NCBI GenBank assembly: GCA_018371855.1
Contig: JAHAKD010000005.1
Span: 84,928 to 148,927 of the forward strand
Reading direction: 5' to 3'
Source: Clostridium sp.
Lineage (GTDB): Bacteria > Bacillota > Clostridia > TANB77 > CAG-508
Length of the DNA: 64,000 bases
Position numbers and translations under genes: made by a program. Each line of letters starts with the position of its first letter. The first letter of the stretch is position 1. The notes under the pieces were generated by a model, which saw only the letters and a program-made list of their open reading frames with translations, ran no database searches and was not told the DNA's origin. Positions 4,967-17,150 of the stretch are shown piece after piece.

Positions 4967-6208
4967 TTATTTACAATTTTTTAAATTGATTTTATCAATA
5001 CAAATAGAAGCAATAGGTATTAAAACTATTATATAAGGGATTATATACCTTGATTTTGCTTCCCATAAAATGTGAAAAGAAAATCCACCAGCAAAAATTG
5101 TAAGTAAAAATATAACTTCTAGTGATAACTTTTTTCGATTTTGTATTAAAACAATTAATGTACAAGAGCAAGTTAATAGTAATAATGCTTTTTGATAAAA
5201 TTCAAGAGGCTGTATAAAATTCTCTATGAAATCATTATTACTTCTAATATTATTTCTTATAGCAGAATAAGTGTTTTCAGTCCACATAGAAGCTATTTTC
5301 TTAGTATAAAAATCAAAGGTATAATCTGGATTTTTTAAAAAGTAATTTATTTGCTTATAAATATATTTAGGATAATCATGTTTTGCATTATCTGGATTCA
5401 ATAATGTATCTTTTGCAATATCTTCATTATACCATCCATTACCTCTAGGAGATTTTTCCATTGCCATTAAGACATAGCTTATAGTAGGATATTTCTTAGT
5501 ATTATCTAAGTTATACTTATTAGAATAATAATTTATTACTAAGATTGCTGGAAGAATTGAACCTATAATATATATAGCAATTAAACTAATATTTTTTAAA
5601 TTATTTTTTAAAGTGTATTGATTCCACTTGCTAAATAAATTTAACAACATATAGATAATTGTTGCTATTATAAAAATTAAACTATTCATTCTCATCATAT
5701 ATGCAATCGTTGTAAAAAAAATAGTATAAATAAAATATTTTATCTTATGTGTTTCGGTGTAACACATTATAAAATAGGTTGCCAATATGCATAATGCCAA
5801 ACTAGGAAGATCCCCATATATAAATGTGGATAATAATGGTAAAGTAAAAAATGTTAATACTAAAATAAATAATAAAGAAGTATTGGTTGCATATTTTGAT
5901 GATAATTTTAATTGTATTTTATATAATACTATAACAATAGCAATATTGCTTATTATATTTACAATTCTCAACACTTCCATAACATCAAAATGAATTAACC
6001 TAAAAATAAGGCTGAAAATAAATGCTAAAGGTATTTGATGTGTATATGCTTGTATGTATTCATATAATGGCACGCCAATATATGTAGAGTTAAATAGAAA
6101 TTCTTGAGGATTATTTCTGGAAAAAGTTTGTGCAAGGTTACATACATGAACAGAATCACCGACGACTTTAGGATTTATAAAAATAACCCAAAGAATATTA
6201 ACTAGCAA
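4967..6208 (-). CDS. polytopic membrane protein, putative GT-C-fold glycosyltransferase (ArnT/PMT-like); N-terminus may continue in ORF 6223..6456
   Basis: Eleven or more predicted TM segments with a large extracytoplasmic loop. No RBS before the first Met. The adjacent upstream ORF carries two TMs and a DE dipeptide. Confidence 0.4.
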   Translation of the reverse strand: MLVNILWVIFINPKVVGDSVHVCNLAQTFSRNNPQEFLFNSTYIGVPLYEYIQAYTHQIPLAFIFSLIFRLIHFDVMEVLRIVNIISNIAIVIVLYKIQLKLSSKYATNTSLLFILVLTFFTLPLLSTFIYGDLPSLALCILATYFIMCYTETHKIKYFIYTIFFTTIAYMMRMNSLIFIIATIIYMLLNLFSKWNQYTLKNNLKNISLIAIYIIGSILPAILVINYYSNKYNLDNTKKYPTISYVLMAMEKSPRGNGWYNEDIAKDTLLNPDNAKHDYPKYIYKQINYFLKNPDYTFDFYTKKIASMWTENTYSAIRNNIRSNNDFIENFIQPLEFYQKALLLLTCSCTLIVLIQNRKKLSLEVIFLLTIFAGGFSFHILWEAKSRYIIPYIIVLIPIASICIDKINLKNCK

Positions 6209-6222
6209 ATATATTAGTAATG

Positions 6223-6456
6223 CTATTCTAAATGTTTTTCGTCTATAAGAAACACTTTTTTATATAGAATTTTATTGGTTATATTAGCTATATAATAGAT
6301 AGTAATAATTAATAAAATCATCCCCAAATTATATAACCATGAATTATAAGAAATACTAATATGTTCTGAATTATTAAGAAATGATGTATATAATAAGTTT
6401 AAAATAATAATTATAATTAAGAATATCATTCCTAAAAAATATATGATTTTTTTCAA
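6223..6456 (-). CDS. small membrane protein (77 aa), possibly the frameshifted N-terminus of the downstream GT-C protein
   Basis: Two TM helices; ends ...LIDEKHLE 15 nt before the next ORF in another frame. Confidence 0.35.
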   Translation of the reverse strand: MKKIIYFLGMIFLIIIIILNLLYTSFLNNSEHISISYNSWLYNLGMILLIITIYYIANITNKILYKKVFLIDEKHLE

Positions 6457-6477
6457 TTTATTTCTCCATTCCTATAA

Positions 6478-7041
6478 TTATAGATATTGATTGCGTACTT
6501 TATTTAATACTGTTATTATACTTGCTTTTGGAGTCAATTTATATAATAACATTTTTTCTTTTTCGCGCTCATTTGTTGCTTTAATAATATTAGTTTTTAT
6601 ATTATTTATACTTTTCTGATGTTTATAACTGATATATTTATAAACATTTTGCTCGAGATTATCTACAAAATCAAAATTATTTCTATTATATACATACATA
6701 ATAGCCTCTATAATATAAAGAGTTCCTTTGTATTTAATATTATATACTTGTCTTGGCAAATCTGTATCTCCAGAAATAACTATTATTTGAGGCTTTTTTA
6801 TAGTATTCATATATTTTAAATCTTCTAAAATATTAATCCCATTTCCATCTGGTAAATTTATATCTAAAAAGATTAAATCTATTTGATTGTTTGATAAAAT
6901 ACTAATCCCTTCTTTATATGTAGTTGCAATATAAGAAAGTTGTATGTTTTTAAATTTACTTAAAATAGAATTTAAGATTCTTTTAGAAAAACTCAAGTCA
7001 TCTTCAATTATCAAAGCTTTTATTAAGTTGTTATTCATCAT
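6478..7041 (-). CDS. orphan response regulator (REC domain plus short uncharacterised C-terminus)
   Basis: ALIIEDD ... LIFLDINLPDGNG receiver motifs. No adjacent histidine kinase. Co-oriented directly downstream of the sigma/anti-sigma pair. Confidence 0.7.
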   Translation of the reverse strand: MMNNNLIKALIIEDDLSFSKRILNSILSKFKNIQLSYIATTYKEGISILSNNQIDLIFLDINLPDGNGINILEDLKYMNTIKKPQIIVISGDTDLPRQVYNIKYKGTLYIIEAIMYVYNRNNFDFVDNLEQNVYKYISYKHQKSINNIKTNIIKATNEREKEKMLLYKLTPKASIITVLNKVRNQYL

Positions 7042-7075
7042 GATCCTTCCTTTGGCTGTCTCAATACTTTATTTT

Positions 7076-7939
7076 TTAATTTTCTGAGTCCGGTGGGAAA
7101 ATATCATTATCAGAAACAATATTTGTTTCTATTAAAAATGTACGTTCAAAATTAATTTCACCGTTATTTTTTTGAACTTCTCTAACTGGTAGCATTATTT
7201 TTTTATCAATCCATAATTCCCTAGTATTACCAAATAAAATTACATAGCAATCTTTATCATTATAAGTATCTTCTTTTATTTTTAAACTAATTATATTAAG
7301 TTTGTTTTGCATATAATTTTCTATATCAATAAAGCAATTAAAAATAGAACCTTTTGATTTATATGGATATGTAGTATTATTAAATGATGTATTTGTATTG
7401 TAATCTTTATGAATTACGTCATTAGTATAAATATTTCCATAATTTATTATTTCTTTAGTATTATTAGAGTAAGATTCACTTTTAAATGTACCATCTTTAT
7501 AATAATAAATATCTGTAAATGAATTTATTTCTTCGCTATTTGGCGTTATGTAGTATTGTGTCATTGTGAATTTATAGTTATCCATATTTTTAGCTTCTTG
7601 AATTTTGTCATATGTTTTTGATATTATAGAATATCTAGGAATATATGTGGTTAAGAAAGAAATAAGTAATAATATTATTGCTATTAGAAAAACAGAAATA
7701 CTAATTTTTAATATAGCCATTTTTTTTCTATACTTCTTTATTTGATGGATTTCTGCTTGTTCTTCCAAAAAGCTAGTATCTATTTCTTGAATCATATTAC
7801 CTTGCATATTATTTAATATTTCTTTACATTCTGGACATTCTTTAATATGTGTTTCGATAAAATCCTTTGTTTGATTACCTACCAAATTTTCTATATAATT
7901 AGGTAACAAATCTCTTACAATCTCACATTCCTTTTTCAT
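7076..7939 (-). CDS. anti-sigma factor (zf-HC2 N-terminus, single TM, extracytoplasmic domain)
   Basis: CEIVRDLLPNY...HIKECPECKE zinc-finger signature and a TM at ~95-115. Overlaps the sigma-factor gene by 17 nt. Confidence 0.75.
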   Translation of the reverse strand: MKKECEIVRDLLPNYIENLVGNQTKDFIETHIKECPECKEILNNMQGNMIQEIDTSFLEEQAEIHQIKKYRKKMAILKISISVFLIAIILLLISFLTTYIPRYSIISKTYDKIQEAKNMDNYKFTMTQYYITPNSEEINSFTDIYYYKDGTFKSESYSNNTKEIINYGNIYTNDVIHKDYNTNTSFNNTTYPYKSKGSIFNCFIDIENYMQNKLNIISLKIKEDTYNDKDCYVILFGNTRELWIDKKIMLPVREVQKNNGEINFERTFLIETNIVSDNDIFPPDSEN

Positions 7940-12177: not shown

Positions 12178-12330
12178 AAAGCTAAATCCTTTCGTAACTT
12201 GTAAAGTCAAAATTATTATATCATTAAAGCAATAAAAATATGTAGTTATTTCATATAAAAAATATACATATATAAGTGGACATTTTGTGGTATATAATAT
12301 AAAATGTACTATAGATTTAGGAGGACAAAG

Positions 12331-13083
12331 ATGAAAGCTTTAGTTACAGGTGCATCATCAGGAATAGGAGAGGAAATAGCTAAAGAATTAGCAAAAAGAG
12401 GATATGATATAATTCTTGTAGCTAGAAATGAAGAAAAATTAAAAGATGTTGCCTCAAAGATAAAAACCAATACCAGAATAATAACTATGGATTTATCTAA
12501 TAAAGAAAATTGTGAAGAGTTATATGAAGAAACAAAGAATGAAGATATAGATATCTTAATAAATAATGCAGGTTTTGGTGTTCACGGAAAATTTTGTGAT
12601 ACAGATTTAAATAAAGAAGTGCAAATGATAGAAACAAATATAACTGCAGTTCATATTTTAATGAAATTATTTTTAAAAGATATGATAAAGAAAAATAGTG
12701 GATATATTTTGAATGTTGCTTCTATGGCAGCATTTGGCCCAGGCCCATTAATGAGTGCATATTATGCTTCAAAAGCTTATGTATATAGATTGTCACAGGG
12801 GGTAAAAACAGAATTAAAAAAGAATAATTCAAAGGTTAAAATTTCGGTATTATGCCCAGGACCCGTAAGGACAAATTTTAATAAAGTAGCAGGAGTAGAT
12901 TTTGCAGCACCATCAATAAGTAGTGAATATGTTGCTAAATATGCAGTAAAGAAAATGCTAAAAAATAAATTTACAATAGTTCCTGGTACTTTTATGAAAA
13001 TAACTAGATTTTTCGAGAAAATAACTCCACATAATTTAGTAAGCAATGTTTCATATTTTGTAAATTACCGTAAAGATAAATGA
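12331..13083 (+). CDS. SDR-family short-chain dehydrogenase/reductase
   Basis: TGASSGIG Rossmann motif, NNAG, and YxxxK (YASKAY). RBS AGGAGG. Confidence 0.8.
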   Translation: MKALVTGASSGIGEEIAKELAKRGYDIILVARNEEKLKDVASKIKTNTRIITMDLSNKENCEELYEETKNEDIDILINNAGFGVHGKFCDTDLNKEVQMIETNITAVHILMKLFLKDMIKKNSGYILNVASMAAFGPGPLMSAYYASKAYVYRLSQGVKTELKKNNSKVKISVLCPGPVRTNFNKVAGVDFAAPSISSEYVAKYAVKKMLKNKFTIVPGTFMKITRFFEKITPHNLVSNVSYFVNYRKDK

Positions 13084-13157: not shown

Positions 13158-13712
13158 ATGAAATTAATGTTTGCATCAGATATACATGGAAATGCATATT
13201 TTTGTAATAAACTTAAGGAAGCATATAATAAAGAACAACCAGAAAAATTAATATTGTTAGGAGATTTATTATATAATAAATCGATTCTATCATTTGGAAG
13301 AAATAGTGAAAGGCAAAAAACAGCCGGAATTCTGAATGATTTAATGGATTATATAATTGCAGTAAGGGGAAATTGTGATACGGATTTAGATCAAGCATTA
13401 TTATATTTTCCAATAATGATTGATTATAAAAAATTAAATGTTGATGGATATGAAATTTTCATAACACATGGTCATTTATATTATAAATATTATTTACCAC
13501 CTTCAAATAAAAAGGTAATTTTAATACATGGACATACACATGTACCATGTATAGAAAATACGAAAGAATATATGTACTTAAATCCAGGTTCTATATCTGA
13601 TCCAAGAGAAGGAAATCCTAATACTTATATGATATACGAAAATAAAGAATTTATAATTAAAGATATAGAAGGACACGAGTTTAAAAGCATAAATTTAGAT
13701 GAATGCTATTAA
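13158..13712 (+). CDS. metallophosphoesterase, YfcE/MJ0936-like Mn-dependent phosphodiesterase
   Basis: DIHGN, GDLL, GNCD, THGH and GHTH motifs. Confidence 0.75.
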   Translation: MKLMFASDIHGNAYFCNKLKEAYNKEQPEKLILLGDLLYNKSILSFGRNSERQKTAGILNDLMDYIIAVRGNCDTDLDQALLYFPIMIDYKKLNVDGYEIFITHGHLYYKYYLPPSNKKVILIHGHTHVPCIENTKEYMYLNPGSISDPREGNPNTYMIYENKEFIIKDIEGHEFKSINLDECY

Positions 13713-14223
13713 TTATGATAAAATAAAATATCATATAGTATATGGAAAAGTAAAAAATTTATATATTCATATAAAAAATGGTGAAGTAATAGTGAAGGCA
13801 CCTAGGTTTATTACTAAAAAATACATAGATGAGATTGTAGAACAAAAAAGAAATTGGATATTAAAAAAACTAGAAGAAAGTAAAAATGAAACCAAAGAAA
13901 GAGAATATACTAAAATAGATATAGATAATTTAAAAACTAAATTAGAATATATTTTTCCGGAATTAATAAAACAAACAAATTTAGTTCCAAATAAGATAAG
14001 AATTAGAAACATAAAATACGCTTGGGGAAGTTGCTCAAGTAATAAGAATATAACAATAAATTTGAAGCTTGTTGATAAATCGGAAGAGGAAATAAAATAT
14101 GTTGTATTACATGAATTATGTCATTTAAAATATATGAATCATTCAGAAAAATTTTGGAACTTAGTAGAAAAATATATGCCAAATTATAAAGAAATTAGAA
14201 AACAACTAAAATACAATAGATAA
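13699..14223 (+). CDS. YgjP/DUF45-like zinc metallopeptidase-fold hydrolase (WLM/SprT-like clan)
   Basis: HELCHL zincin motif. Overlaps the upstream gene by 14 nt, suggesting an operon. Confidence 0.6.
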   Translation: MNAINYDKIKYHIVYGKVKNLYIHIKNGEVIVKAPRFITKKYIDEIVEQKRNWILKKLEESKNETKEREYTKIDIDNLKTKLEYIFPELIKQTNLVPNKIRIRNIKYAWGSCSSNKNITINLKLVDKSEEEIKYVVLHELCHLKYMNHSEKFWNLVEKYMPNYKEIRKQLKYNR

Positions 14224-14239
14224 GACAGGAGATACAAAA

Positions 14240-15739
14240 ATGATAAGTTCAAAAGATGGAATAATAGGTTTTGCAATAGGGGATGCAATGGGAGTTCCAG
14301 TAGAATTTACCAACAGGGAAAAACTAATGAGAAATCCAATAACTTCAATGGAAGGCTTTATGAGCCATAATGTTCCAAAGGGGACTTGGTCAGATGATAC
14401 ATCTATGACAATAGCCACAATGGATTCGATAATTAACTCTAATGGAGATATTATAGCAAATGATATGGCAAATAGATTTTTAGAGTGGATGGAAAAGGGA
14501 GAATATACACCAGGTGGAAAAATTGTTGATATAGATAGGACAACTTTAAGGGCACTAGGTAAATATAAAACAACAAGAAGAAGTGCTGTAAATTGTGGAT
14601 GTACAAGCAATACAGATAATGGTAATGGTTCATTAATGAGAATGTTACCAGTAGTGTATTATTCATATTTAAATTGGCTAGAGCAAGATAAAATCTTAAA
14701 ATTAGTTGCTGGTATATCATCAATTACACATGCAAATGAGCTAGTAATTATGGGATGTTATATGTATGTTAATTATGCCATTGAATTATTAAATACTAAT
14801 AACAGAAAAGCAGCATATTCTAAAATTCAAAATTTAGATTATTCGATGTTTTCTATGCCAACAATAAGAGCATATACTAGAATTCTAGATCATGAAATTT
14901 ACCATTATGGTATAGACGAAATAAAGTCATCAAGTTATATAGTAGATACACTAGAAGCTGTTTTATGGGTACTTATAAATACAGATACATATAATCAAGC
15001 AATAATTGGAGCAATTAACTTAGGTAGTGATACAGATACAATTGCAGCTTGTACAGGAGGTTTAGCAGGAATTATTTATGGAATAAAAAGTATTAATTCA
15101 GATTGGAAAATTGATTTACGTAAATATTCAGAAATTATAGACATTTGTGAGCAATTTGATGATGTATTATATAAATTAAATGGAAAAGAAATTAATAATA
15201 ATACAGTAAATAAAAATGATATATTAAGAAGAATAGAAATTGTAAATAATGAAATAACCGAAGTTCCAGCAGATGCATTAGTTTGTGCCAATACATCTGG
15301 TAATTTAGGAAGAGGGGGAGAAGGTACAATATTTTCTAGGGCTGGTATAGAGTTAGAAAATAAATGTAAAGAGTTTGACGAATTAAGTAAAGGAGAAGCT
15401 AAAGTAACAAGAGCATATAGAATTGATACAAAATATATTATTCATACAGTTGTACCAAAATGGTATGATGAAAGTGAAAAAAATCAAAATGAATTATTAG
15501 AAGAATGCTATAAAAATATTTTTAGAATTTCTGCAGATTATGATATTAAAAGTATTGCAATTCCTACACTTGGAATTGGTGCTTGTAGTGCTCCGGTAGA
15601 TGTAGCAGTTAAAATTGCAATTGATGGTATAATAAATAACTTCTTTAGAAATCCTGATATAGATAAAATTTACATAGTTTGTAACGATTCTAGAATACAA
15701 AGAACATATATAGAATACTTAAACAGCTTATTAGATTAA
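14240..15739 (+). CDS. ADP-ribosylglycohydrolase (ARH/DraG-like) fused to a C-terminal macro domain
   Basis: N-terminal GFAIGDAMGVPVEF...SDDTSMT ARH signature (~330 aa). C-terminal ~160 aa reads ADALVCANTSGNLGRGGEG...AIPTLGIGACSAP, typical of macro domains. Confidence 0.7.
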   Translation: MISSKDGIIGFAIGDAMGVPVEFTNREKLMRNPITSMEGFMSHNVPKGTWSDDTSMTIATMDSIINSNGDIIANDMANRFLEWMEKGEYTPGGKIVDIDRTTLRALGKYKTTRRSAVNCGCTSNTDNGNGSLMRMLPVVYYSYLNWLEQDKILKLVAGISSITHANELVIMGCYMYVNYAIELLNTNNRKAAYSKIQNLDYSMFSMPTIRAYTRILDHEIYHYGIDEIKSSSYIVDTLEAVLWVLINTDTYNQAIIGAINLGSDTDTIAACTGGLAGIIYGIKSINSDWKIDLRKYSEIIDICEQFDDVLYKLNGKEINNNTVNKNDILRRIEIVNNEITEVPADALVCANTSGNLGRGGEGTIFSRAGIELENKCKEFDELSKGEAKVTRAYRIDTKYIIHTVVPKWYDESEKNQNELLEECYKNIFRISADYDIKSIAIPTLGIGACSAPVDVAVKIAIDGIINNFFRNPDIDKIYIVCNDSRIQRTYIEYLNSLLD

Positions 15740-15740
15740 A

Positions 15741-15781
15741 AAACATGGAAGTAGATGTTTCTTTCTACTTCCATGTTTTTG
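15741..15781. terminator. bidirectional intrinsic terminator (AAAACATGGAAGTAGA-n-TCTACTTCCATGTTTTT)
   Basis: Perfect 15-bp stem flanked by an A-run and a T-run. Confidence 0.65.
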
Positions 15782-15944
15782 TGTGTATGTTATTGTCCAA
15801 TTTCCGGATGCTTTTTTTGCAAATCTGCAAACATATCGTATTCTTTGTCTGCCTTTTTCATTATGGAAGAGGTTGTAAAATACCCCTCAAAAATGGTGAC
15901 AATAAGAATATAGAATATTTTAAGAAATGTCCTATTATATATGA

Positions 15945-17150
15945 TTAATATTTTACAATGTCATTATATGTTTCTATTGCATAACTATCTGTCATACCAG
16001 AAATATATGTAATAATAGCTTTTTGATAATCTTTAATATCATTCATGTTATATAAAATTTTGTTTTTCAAATGAGATCTATCTGTTTCTATGTTCCAATA
16101 ACAAGAAATCCACTTTATAAAAGTATCAATCACTTTAGGATAAAATGGTCTTTCAATGTTTAATTTCTCTAAAGTATTTATACCATCATAACATTCATTT
16201 AATGTATTAAATATTTCGTTAAGCACAAGACTAAAATATCTTTCTGAAGGTTTCATACATTTGTGTTTATAAATATATTTGTAATTAAATTGTTTTAATC
16301 TTTTTATTTTTTCAAATGTAGTTTCAGAAAATTTTAAGCCTTCTTCTAAAGAGGAATTAATACATAGATCAGCTATTAAATCACCTATAATATTAGTATT
16401 ATTTAAATTAGCACTTCTAGGTTGTTCTAATAAATCATATAATTCATTTAAATTACTATCTAGTATTCCCATAGAAATGGCATCTTCTATATCTCTACCT
16501 AAATATGAGATTTTATCAGAAATTTTAACAACGCAACCCTCCCAAGTATATGGGGAATATTGGTTAAGTTTAAAATAATCTTTTTCTAAATCGATAAATT
16601 CAGTTCTAGGTTTTAAAGAAATTTCATCAATTTCACCACAGTGAGATATAATACCATCTCTTACTGCATATGTTAAGTTTAGATTTTTTTCTTCGTTATT
16701 AACATTTGTTAGCAATTCTATATTATCAACAAAATTTAAACCATTTCTTTCATGCCAAAAAGATTCTAAACCATTTTCCATACAAATTTTATTTAAAATT
16801 TGTTCGCCTTTATGTCCAAAAGGGCTATGACCAATATCGTGTGATATAGAAATGGCTCTTGTTAAAGTGGTATTTAAACCTAATGCTTTTGCAATTGTAT
16901 AACTTGTTGCATCAACATTGTTTACATGTTCAATACGAGTACAAATATGATCATTTTTTGGTAAAAAGAATACCTGTGTTTTATGCTTTAATCTTCTATA
17001 AGCATTACAATATATGATTCTATCATAATCTCTTTCGAATTCAGAGCGTACATCATTTTCTTTTTTATATAGTTCATCTCTTCTTGAAATTAAATTATTC
17101 CAATTAGGGTTAGATGGGGTAGCAGCAACACTACTAAATTTTAAATCCAT
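15945..17150 (-). CDS. dgt: dGTP triphosphohydrolase-like HD-domain protein
   Basis: ISHDIGHSPFGHKGE HD motif and the dGTPase-family N-terminus (DYDRIIY...RRLKHKTQVF). Confidence 0.8.
   Translation of the reverse strand: MDLKFSSVAATPSNPNWNNLISRRDELYKKENDVRSEFERDYDRIIYCNAYRRLKHKTQVFFLPKNDHICTRIEHVNNVDATSYTIAKALGLNTTLTRAISISHDIGHSPFGHKGEQILNKICMENGLESFWHERNGLNFVDNIELLTNVNNEEKNLNLTYAVRDGIISHCGEIDEISLKPRTEFIDLEKDYFKLNQYSPYTWEGCVVKISDKISYLGRDIEDAISMGILDSNLNELYDLLEQPRSANLNNTNIIGDLIADLCINSSLEEGLKFSETTFEKIKRLKQFNYKYIYKHKCMKPSERYFSLVLNEIFNTLNECYDGINTLEKLNIERPFYPKVIDTFIKWISCYWNIETDRSHLKNKILYNMNDIKDYQKAIITYISGMTDSYAIETYNDIVKY

Follow-up and report, generated by a model that had tools for sequence, protein, structure and literature searches.

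The 64,000-nucleotide stretch of DNA analysed here (hereafter the window; positions 84,928 to 148,927 of contig JAHAKD010000005.1, Clostridium sp. assembly GCA_018371855.1) carries a compact group of plus-strand genes encoding a metallophosphodiesterase (PDE), a zincin of the YgjP type and a single polypeptide in which an ADP-ribosylhydrolase (ARH) domain is fused to a macro domain. The host lineage is one of low-GC (~27%) human-gut Clostridia of the 'Clostridium sp. CAG:354' type, and a gut metagenome contig (L022) is 100% identical to the window over the fusion. In what follows, the genus designates the CAG:354-like genus-level clade, represented by 37 loci (16 from genomes and 21 from metagenomes) with fusion identities of 77-100%. 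The initial annotation had seen in these genes a possible toolkit dedicated to the reversal of ADP-ribosylation; judged from its sequence, the fusion appears instead to be an ordinary member of a widespread enzyme family, outside any dedicated three-gene toolkit. The features of the locus, including a short-chain dehydrogenase/reductase (SDR) gene that precedes the PDE, are the following:

12277-12305, plus strand: promoter-like site TGGACA-17-TAAAAT, matching the consensus at 10 of 12 positions
12304-13083, plus strand: SDR gene (adh_short, 4e-48), probable first gene of the operon
13158-13712, plus strand: PDE gene, YfcE-type Mn-dependent metallophosphodiesterase, 184 amino acids
13699-14223, plus strand: gene of the YgjP-like (DUF45) zincin, 174 amino acids
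14240-15739, plus strand: ARH::macro fusion gene, 499 amino acids
14258-15097, plus strand: ARH domain, residues 7-286 of the fusion
15230-15736, plus strand: MacroD-derived macro domain, residues 331-499 of the fusion
15739-15785, plus strand: intrinsic terminator (17-bp hairpin, then a U-tract)

Residues 7-286 of the fusion, its ARH domain, match nearly the whole ADP_ribosyl_GH profile (PF03747) with 216.5 bits against a cutoff of 26.2 (E=8e-64), and the residues of the active site are complete: E22, D52-D53-T54, D97, T163-H164 and D264-x-D266-T267, in the contexts G14-D15-A-M-G...E22, W-S-D52-D53-T54 and G-S-D264-T-D266-T267. These motifs are invariant across the genus and align with those of Lmo0067 from Listeria monocytogenes (8za7), Tri1 from Serratia proteamaculans (6dre) and DraG (2woc), D97 being the DraG-class Asp. 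Tri1 and DraG share with the fusion the ARH fold together with this Asp and the binuclear-metal motifs GDAxG..E, W(S/T)DDTS and G.D.D(S/T), while Lmo0067, the closest solved ARH relative (E=3e-69 over 300 residues), shares all the motifs but is a stand-alone ARH of 332 residues devoid of a macro domain; a search of the searchable literature turned up no paper on it. With a ratio of nonsynonymous to synonymous substitution rates (dN/dS) of 0.054, the ARH domain is under the strongest constraint of the whole locus, to be compared with 0.055 for CtsR and 0.066 for McsB; the value for the whole fusion is 0.08. These properties argue for a cytoplasmic, metal-dependent ADP-ribosylhydrolase of the DraG/Tri1/Lmo0067 class, which would thus be directed at ADP-ribose, and by analogy with its nearest characterised relatives the most likely target of the ARH domain is the N-glycosidic bond of protein-borne ADP-ribosyl-arginine, whose cleavage would release free ADP-ribose. 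The fusion is nevertheless the equivalog of neither characterised enzyme: its best NCBIfam match is the Tri1 model, with 162.8 bits for a cutoff of 490, the DraG model giving 116.4 for a cutoff of 337, and the identities are only ~33% with Tri1 and ~25% with DraG. Furthermore, its C-terminal macro domain is absent from both and, unlike what is seen in the tre1-tri1 and draT-draG pairs, its gene is not adjacent to that of a transferase.

The macro domain presents a different situation. Its fold is recognised by PF01661 over residues 350-460 (87.6 bits, cutoff 22, E=7e-25), and the best PDB relatives of residues 331-499 are human MacroD1 (2x47) and OiMacroD from Oceanobacillus (5l9k), together with YmdB of E. 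coli (5cms/1spv), with E-values of about 1e-17 to 1e-20. It shares with these proteins the fold blocks and the Asp that precedes loop 1, but the canonical catalytic residues of MacroD, by which the distal ribose is positioned and activated, are replaced. The reference motifs were, for loop 1, N-x6-GG[VLI]-D plus a His and, for loop 2, G-[VIA]-[YF]-G with its aromatic residue. In the window, loop 1 is non-canonical and reads VCANTSGNLGRGG-EGTIF, the GRGG element having lost one residue, so that the catalytic set of MacroD (N27, N30, G35-V39, D40, H44) is not reproduced; loop 2, GIGACSAP, likewise departs from the reference by reading G-A-C-S. All six active-site positions named for OiMacroD (N27, N30, V39, D40, H44, Y134; PMC5413906) are affected, five by substitution and one by deletion: N27 has become C, N30 T, D40 E and H44 F, the aromatic Y134 that stacks on the distal ribose has become C, and V39 is deleted. 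Since these replacements are invariant across ~30 distinct sequences of the genus and the dN/dS of the domain is 0.115, the macro domain appears to have changed under constraint and not to have decayed. From its sequence, it is most likely an ADP-ribose-binding or substrate-targeting module, or else a hydrolase of altered specificity. Among the PADLOC defence models, it gave only a marginal match to DarG (E=3e-4).

The same alternation of intact and altered domains runs through the family. About 50 of the best 120 homologs are ARH::macro fusions of ~500 amino acids, found in many gut Firmicutes at 40-52% identity, and proteins with this ARH and Macro composition already carry, in large numbers, the annotation 'ADP-ribosylglycohydrolase family protein'. 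In a survey of the catalytic motifs of 61 non-identical sequences of the fusion family (proteins P0001-P0120, loci L017-L064), both catalytic sets were kept in 20, the ARH set alone in 20, the macro set alone in 19 and neither in 2, at least one canonical set being thus present in 59/61; some fusions of the family therefore keep the canonical macro residues that the window protein has replaced. The loss is complementary (Fisher p = 0.002, a value uncorrected for phylogeny), and this pattern suggests that one catalytic domain suffices and that the other repeatedly turns into a non-canonical, presumably binding, module. The change of H44 to F was found in two differently modified groups. The association of the two domains is also observed outside the fusions: in several loci macro-only genes flank stand-alone ARHs, and in L043 (4873-6339) and L045 (5004-6467) an ARH of 309 amino acids and a canonical MacroD of 172 amino acids are encoded by separate, adjacent, in-frame genes, divided by a TAA-TGA exactly where the linker of the fusion would be. 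This ARH is the closest one outside the genus (59% identity), and the arrangement results either from a fission or from the persistence of an unfused ancestral form. A related locus, L047, has an extra in-frame TAG within the ARH and is possibly a pseudogene. The ARH and macro domains thus form a general and recurrent functional pair, fused or adjacent.

Members of the family also occur on mobile DNA. One fusion homolog, P0014, which occurs on 65 contigs and is canonical in both of its domains, lies on a mobilisable element (L017, 1-13530). The element also encodes a Mob_Pre relaxase, a serine recombinase, a YobI-like ATPase, a DUF3846/RadC protein and a helix-turn-helix (HTH) protein. The fusion homolog may act there as anti-defence cargo, and this context implies that the fusion family can also travel as cargo. 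No full-length fusion was found among annotated plasmids and phages, which carried only stand-alone ARHs at ≤40% identity, and none appeared in the 80 stand-alone ARH loci sampled from the viral contigs of IMG/VR (L116-L195). Such stand-alone ARH genes are common on viral contigs, at 32-42% identity to the window ARH and in some cases on those of more than 100 kb; in none of the 80 sampled loci was a PDE, YgjP, macro or homolog of the transferase family described below found within 5 kb.

Whether the PDE and the zincin belong with the fusion is a matter of gene neighbourhoods. Within the genus, the three genes are together and in identical order in all 37 loci. The synteny, however, spans ~10 kb, from two ABC-transporter genes to ctsR-mcsA-mcsB, and because the entire region from ABC to McsB is conserved together, the co-occurrence of the trio in the genus reflects shared ancestry, and genus synteny was rejected as evidence of linkage. 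Outside the genus, the trio was found in 0/~58 ARH or fusion loci, 0/80 viral ARH loci, 0/3 YgjP lineages and 0/3 PDE lineages. Fusion homologs were found with no PDE or YgjP nearby on the mobilisable element of L017 (40-52% identity), in about a dozen loci within a Lon-transketolase-HD-TPR ... FtsEX-M23 housekeeping block (L018-L021, L044, L046, L048-L052, L055, L064) and in the third context formed by L043, L045 and L047. The nearest YgjP orthologs (55-61% identity, three lineages) lie after rpoA-rplQ and before a RecD2 helicase gene with no PDE or ARH neighbour, and no conserved association joins YgjP to ARH or macro genes. In L102-L107, the YgjP ortholog directly follows rpoA-rplQ and precedes a RecD2-type helicase by one to five genes; this neighbourhood could hint at a role of the zincin related to nucleic acids. 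Two sampled relatives of the PDE have unrelated neighbours. In the lineage of the closest PDE relative (L108; PDE 56% and YgjP 57% identical), the order is ABC-ABC-SDR-(PnuC)-PDE-YgjP-[X]-dGTPase, where X is a protein of 576 amino acids (5511-7241). This protein had no match in Pfam, PADLOC or PHROG and no similarity to the fusion, and was thereby ruled out as a diverged ARH::macro. The simplest history would start from an ancestral SDR-PDE-YgjP group followed downstream by a slot of variable content, where the ancestor of the genus then acquired the fusion. The interval between the fusion and the dGTPase (15740-15944 in the window; equivalents in L001-L042) measures about 52 to 1287 nucleotides in the genus and contains, depending on the locus, a membrane protein of 213 amino acids, a DUF1016/YhcG-like protein of 340 or an alpha/beta-hydrolase of 282: it is a small insertion hotspot. 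The interval from the dGTPase to ctsR is also variable (200 to 1418 nucleotides).

The PDE, in contrast to YgjP, has counterparts next to ARH genes elsewhere. In 16 loci with a stand-alone ARH, a YfcE-type PDE lies immediately upstream on the same strand, at a distance of 16-59 nucleotides and, in one case, of 170. These PDE-linked ARHs are 47-50% identical to the ARH domain of the window and form a clade of their own, distinct from the fusions, with internal identities down to 67% for the ARH and 41% for the PDE; their PDEs are 34-42% identical to that of the window. The catalytic motifs of both proteins are intact in nearly all members, and although the flanking genes vary by insertion or replacement, the two genes of the pair are never separated. 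For a neighbour family specified beforehand, a rough estimate puts at about 1% the chance of its standing immediately upstream in one of ~20 independent contexts. In L108, the gene directly upstream of the PDE ortholog is that of PnuC, a transporter of nicotinamide mononucleotide (NMN) or nicotinamide riboside, that is another neighbour related to NAD. Moreover, ADP-ribosylglycohydrolase (ARG) genes lacking an adjacent transferase and coupled to phosphatases, including those of the calcineurin-like type, were predicted by Iyer et al. 2022 (PMC9503650). By analogy, it is plausible, with moderate support, that the PDE is an accessory enzyme hydrolysing ADP-ribose once it is released, or a related diester derived from NAD.

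The protein itself is readily classified. It matches Metallophos_2 (3e-23) and exceeds the cutoff of the NCBIfam YfcE-type equivalog PRK09453 (164.1 bits for 117); its closest solved structure is that of E. coli YfcE (1su1; E=1e-35, a match in the 45% range), all the metal-binding motifs are present (D8-x-H10, GD36, GNCD, HGH and GHTH) and the metal ligands are all shared with the YfcE and MJ0936 phosphodiesterases. Unlike this assignment, its link with ADP-ribose comes from the gene neighbourhood only. The PDE belongs to the very abundant YfcE family of Clostridia, and its dN/dS in the genus comparison is 0.12; to our knowledge, no physiological substrate of YfcE has been established. The YgjP protein (dN/dS 0.155 in the same comparison) matches PF01863 with 155.8 bits (cutoff 26, E=2e-45), with weaker matches to WLM and SprT, and has the zinc site HELCH-x5-H (HELCHLKYMNH). 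Its closest solved relatives are the minigluzincins proabylysin (4jiu) and selecase (MJ1213, 4qhf), which, together with the SprT/WLM zincins, share the HExxH-x5-H module formed by its C-terminal ~70 residues; relative to the minigluzincins, YgjP possesses ~95 additional N-terminal residues. Our literature search on YgjP function gave nothing usable, and neither YgjP nor the PDE matched a PADLOC defence model.

The genes are tightly packed. Those of the PDE and YgjP overlap by 14 nucleotides and YgjP lacks a good ribosome-binding site or Shine-Dalgarno sequence, which suggests that the two are translationally coupled; 16 nucleotides separate YgjP from the fusion, which is preceded by an AGGAG ribosome-binding site. 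On the upstream side, the gap between the SDR and the PDE measures 74 nucleotides in the window and 9-130 across the genus, and the SDR also stands upstream of the PDE in L108, a sister lineage. No significant hairpin is present in this interval (folding against shuffles, z=-0.5), so that a terminator between the two genes was ruled out. Directly 3' of the fusion stop, on the other hand, lies a strong hairpin (dG -24.1 kcal/mol, z=-8.26), which a consensus terminator scan had missed and which none of 200 shuffles equalled in folding. The short gap, the lack of a significant hairpin within it and the strong terminator after the fusion make a unit of four genes, SDR-PDE-YgjP-fusion, the most likely. 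The initial annotation had described an operon of three: its genes, their order and their packing were correct, but the unit probably includes the SDR as well; the identities that it had proposed for the three products were all borne out by the profile matches. The promoter-like site at 12277-12305 might tentatively be taken as the start of the transcription unit, with the limit that sites of this consensus are weak evidence, being no more frequent in this AT-rich region than in shuffled sequence; the true start of the SDR is likely an internal Met near 12331. An Rfam search of the leaders revealed no regulatory RNA or riboswitch, the best matches (E-values 0.43 and 0.81) being far below the gathering scores.

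The operon is surrounded by genes of ABC transporters, a dGTPase and CtsR-McsAB. The terminator hairpin at 15739-15785 has an A-tract upstream and a U-tract downstream, and may act both ways, for the fusion gene and for the dGTPase gene that converges on it. The product of this convergent neighbour (15945-17150, minus strand) is a dGTP triphosphohydrolase that matches the PADLOC dGTPase model (E=1e-54) and falls below the NCBIfam anti-phage cutoff; its position is conserved across the genus and in L108, and it is more likely a housekeeping gene.

A possible source of the mark is encoded elsewhere in the window, where the initial annotation had noted a candidate ADP-ribosyltransferase (ART):

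32227-33120, minus strand: candidate cytoplasmic R-S-ExE mono-ADP-ribosyltransferase, 297 amino acids, by fold and motif

This open reading frame has no sequence match in Pfam, NCBIfam or PDB, searches with phmmer and with the family profile included, and it belongs to a very rare family, with 29 cluster representatives in a set of 1.84 billion proteins. The family alignment reveals conserved (S/T)-T-T-K and Y-x-K-x-x-E-x-E-(V/I)-L-L motifs, in which S144, E192 and E194 are invariant. With the AlphaFold2 model of the protein (pLDDT 89.7), the top 37 PDB hits of Foldseek are all ARTs of the C3/VIP2/iota/CDTa/Vis/Plx2A group with a probability of at least 0.99, the TM-scores being modest (0.29-0.40 on the query length). 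No signal peptide is present. The model and the motif thus support a candidate ART of the C3/VIP2 type with an ExE motif. This motif is typical of arginine-specific ARTs, and a transferase of that type would match an eraser of the DraG/Tri1 class: the ART and the fusion are a possible writer-eraser pair. They are separated by 16.5 kb and lie on opposite strands in different transcription units, the candidate being the sole ART-like gene of the window. In other lineages, its homologs stand alone, surrounded by housekeeping genes, and neither an ARH nor a macro gene occurs within 6 kb of them (two informative cases, a third contig being too short). The gene is apparently the last of a minus-strand unit that comprises a histidine phosphatase (33749-34417) and TspO (33216-33674), and its product has a weak PADLOC match to the DRT-associated protein RTas1808 (E=1e-5).

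A published parallel to the operon is found in the ARG-centric systems described by Iyer, Burroughs, Anantharaman and Aravind (2022; PMC9503650, section 3.8), which were predicted to counter extrinsic ADP-ribosylation. As in these systems, an ARG is found without an adjacent ART or sirtuin, coupled to a calcineurin-like PDE and provided with a Macro domain, which is an occasional addition there. Unlike them, the window has no Nudix- or WYL-HTH regulator, no peptide-binding chaperone and no nuclease effector, such regulators and/or chaperones being found in a large fraction of the systems described; its genes evolve slowly (dN/dS 0.05-0.16) in a fixed architecture, and not rapidly with variable accretion; and its host belongs to the Firmicutes, whereas the described systems occur in actinobacteria, planctomycetes or proteobacteria. 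Because the regulators, the chaperones and the rapid evolution are absent, we do not file the operon under this category.

Three other explanations have to be weighed against the one we propose. One is that of the initial annotation, according to which PDE, YgjP and ARH::macro would form a dedicated system where ADP-ribose is removed, trimmed to phosphoribose and the modified adducts proteolysed, as an immunity against the ART at 32.2 kb or foreign ARTs. The tight packing and the PDE/YgjP translational coupling, the purifying selection on three genes that are always together within the genus, the resemblance of the YgjP catalytic module to genuine soluble metallopeptidases and the ART-fold gene of the same genome are in its favour, but we consider it very improbable, for the trio is confined to loci that are syntenic over the entire 10 kb, fusions stand in at least three other contexts without both partners, YgjP orthologs follow rpoA-rplQ in three lineages, in L108 the slot that follows PDE and YgjP is taken by an unrelated protein, neither PDE nor YgjP occurs near the 80 viral ARH loci or matches a defence model, and the low dN/dS and fixed architecture are unlike those of conflict systems. 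Several of its elements survive. The fusion is, as had been proposed, apparently directed at ADP-ribose, its ARH active site being intact; the ARH-macro pairing recurs, and a PDE-ARH operon is found again in a separate clade; and the ART candidate has the expected fold and its ExE motif. By contrast, the supposed action of two erasers on two chemistries is doubtful here, the macro domain being without the canonical MacroD catalytic residues; the conserved three-gene module dissolves outside the one syntenic genus, where the lack of co-occurrence that the initial annotation had itself named as a ground for refutation is observed; the removal of modified adducts by the zincin is not supported; immunity or conflict fits poorly with slow-evolving genes set among housekeeping genes; and no neighbourhood ties the ART to the fusion that was to protect against it.

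An operon of convenience, in which four unrelated hydrolase or oxidoreductase genes would be co-transcribed in a small and compact genome, the fusion having been acquired horizontally and its proximity to the PDE being meaningless, seems to us rather unlikely. The interval between YgjP and the dGTPase is indeed variable (the 576-residue protein in L108, different inserts after the fusion in the genus), at least one relative carries its fusion on a mobilisable element, the window ARH groups with the other fusions and not with the PDE-linked ARHs, and the PDE is a generic YfcE ortholog; against this, a separate, diverged clade shows PDE and ARH in this order, again as a tight operon, for which the chance estimate was ~1%, the coupling of an ARG to a phosphoesterase has a published precedent (PMC9503650), and the arrangement is fixed while synonymous sites approach saturation. 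We also hold it unlikely that the fusion and the PDE are concerned with metabolite housecleaning, acting on free NAD-derived small molecules during NAD turnover or salvage, the candidates being sirtuin-derived O-acetyl-ADP-ribose, the ADP-ribose-1''-phosphate of RNA repair, free ADP-ribosyl-arginine and ADP-ribose. O-acetyl-ADP-ribose hydrolysis is known for ARH and MacroD enzymes, the PDE ortholog of L108 is directly downstream of PnuC, the constraint and the fixed chromosomal position are housekeeping-like, and no ART or sirtuin is adjacent. Yet the closest characterised ARH relatives, Tri1 and DraG, act on protein arginine, the lineage has lost the canonical MacroD residues for O-acetyl-ADP-ribose deacetylation, ARG domains prefer macromolecular adducts as argued by Iyer et al., and the presence of one relative on a mobilisable element is a poor fit to simple housekeeping.

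The explanation that we propose, and to which we give about an even chance of being correct in all its parts, is that of a genus-specific SDR-PDE-YgjP-ARH::macro operon in which the fusion alone is specifically directed at ADP-ribose, the PDE is an accessory, and YgjP and the SDR are passengers. The ARH domain would remove ADP-ribose from arginine residues of cytoplasmic proteins. The macro domain would bind ADP-ribose in order to recruit or orient the substrates, or would handle a different linkage. The PDE would degrade the ADP-ribose so released or a related diester derived from NAD, giving for instance AMP and ribose-5-phosphate, and YgjP and the SDR would be co-transcribed without any specific role in ADP-ribose metabolism. 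The mark would be written either by the ExE-type ART candidate of the same genome or by foreign toxins. The slow evolution, the fixed architecture, the housekeeping surroundings and the lack of a PADLOC match lead us to favour an endogenous regulation or a general protection over a dedicated anti-phage system.

Several points weigh against this explanation. The arginine specificity is extrapolated from Tri1, at ~33% identity, and from DraG, for a family known from sequence only. The macro domain might remain a hydrolase, given that the N30A and D40A mutants of OiMacroD retain 14-28% of the catalytic efficiency (PMC5413906). The PDE of the window is an ortholog of the generic YfcE of Clostridia, usually devoid of an ARH neighbour, and none of the ARH loci sampled from viral contigs, 80 in all, had a PDE nearby. 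The adjacency may also be accidental, if the fusion just happened to insert in a variable slot beside PDE-YgjP. Conversely, the tight packing and the PDE-YgjP coupling could mean that YgjP matters to the function of the operon.

A more ambitious version, which we regard as distinctly doubtful, would be an endogenous circuit of reversible arginine ADP-ribosylation, with the rare ExE ART as the writer, the ARH::macro fusion as an eraser whose macro domain, once a hydrolase, would have become a reader of ADP-ribose guiding the ARH domain to modified proteins, and the co-transcribed YfcE-type PDE clearing the product. If this circuit were true, the complementary catalytic loss across the fusion family would represent a repeated sub-functionalisation into reader and eraser.

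In conclusion, the interest of the locus lies in its re-modelled macro domain, in the complementary degeneration that affects the family, in the recurrent YfcE-ARH operon and in the rare ART-fold family present in the same genome. The restriction of the trio to one genus guards against an over-interpretation of the zincin, and the recurrent PDE-ARH operon is a rare functional lead for the YfcE phosphodiesterases. The pattern seen in the family, where ARH or macro, but almost never both, loses its catalytic residues, offers a testable case of a fusion of two erasers turning into a reader-eraser. Finally, if the fusion is an eraser of arginine-linked ADP-ribose, an abundant family of human-gut Firmicutes would join the few bacterial enzymes known to reverse ADP-ribosylation, DraG, Tri1, DarG and the Zn-macro enzymes.

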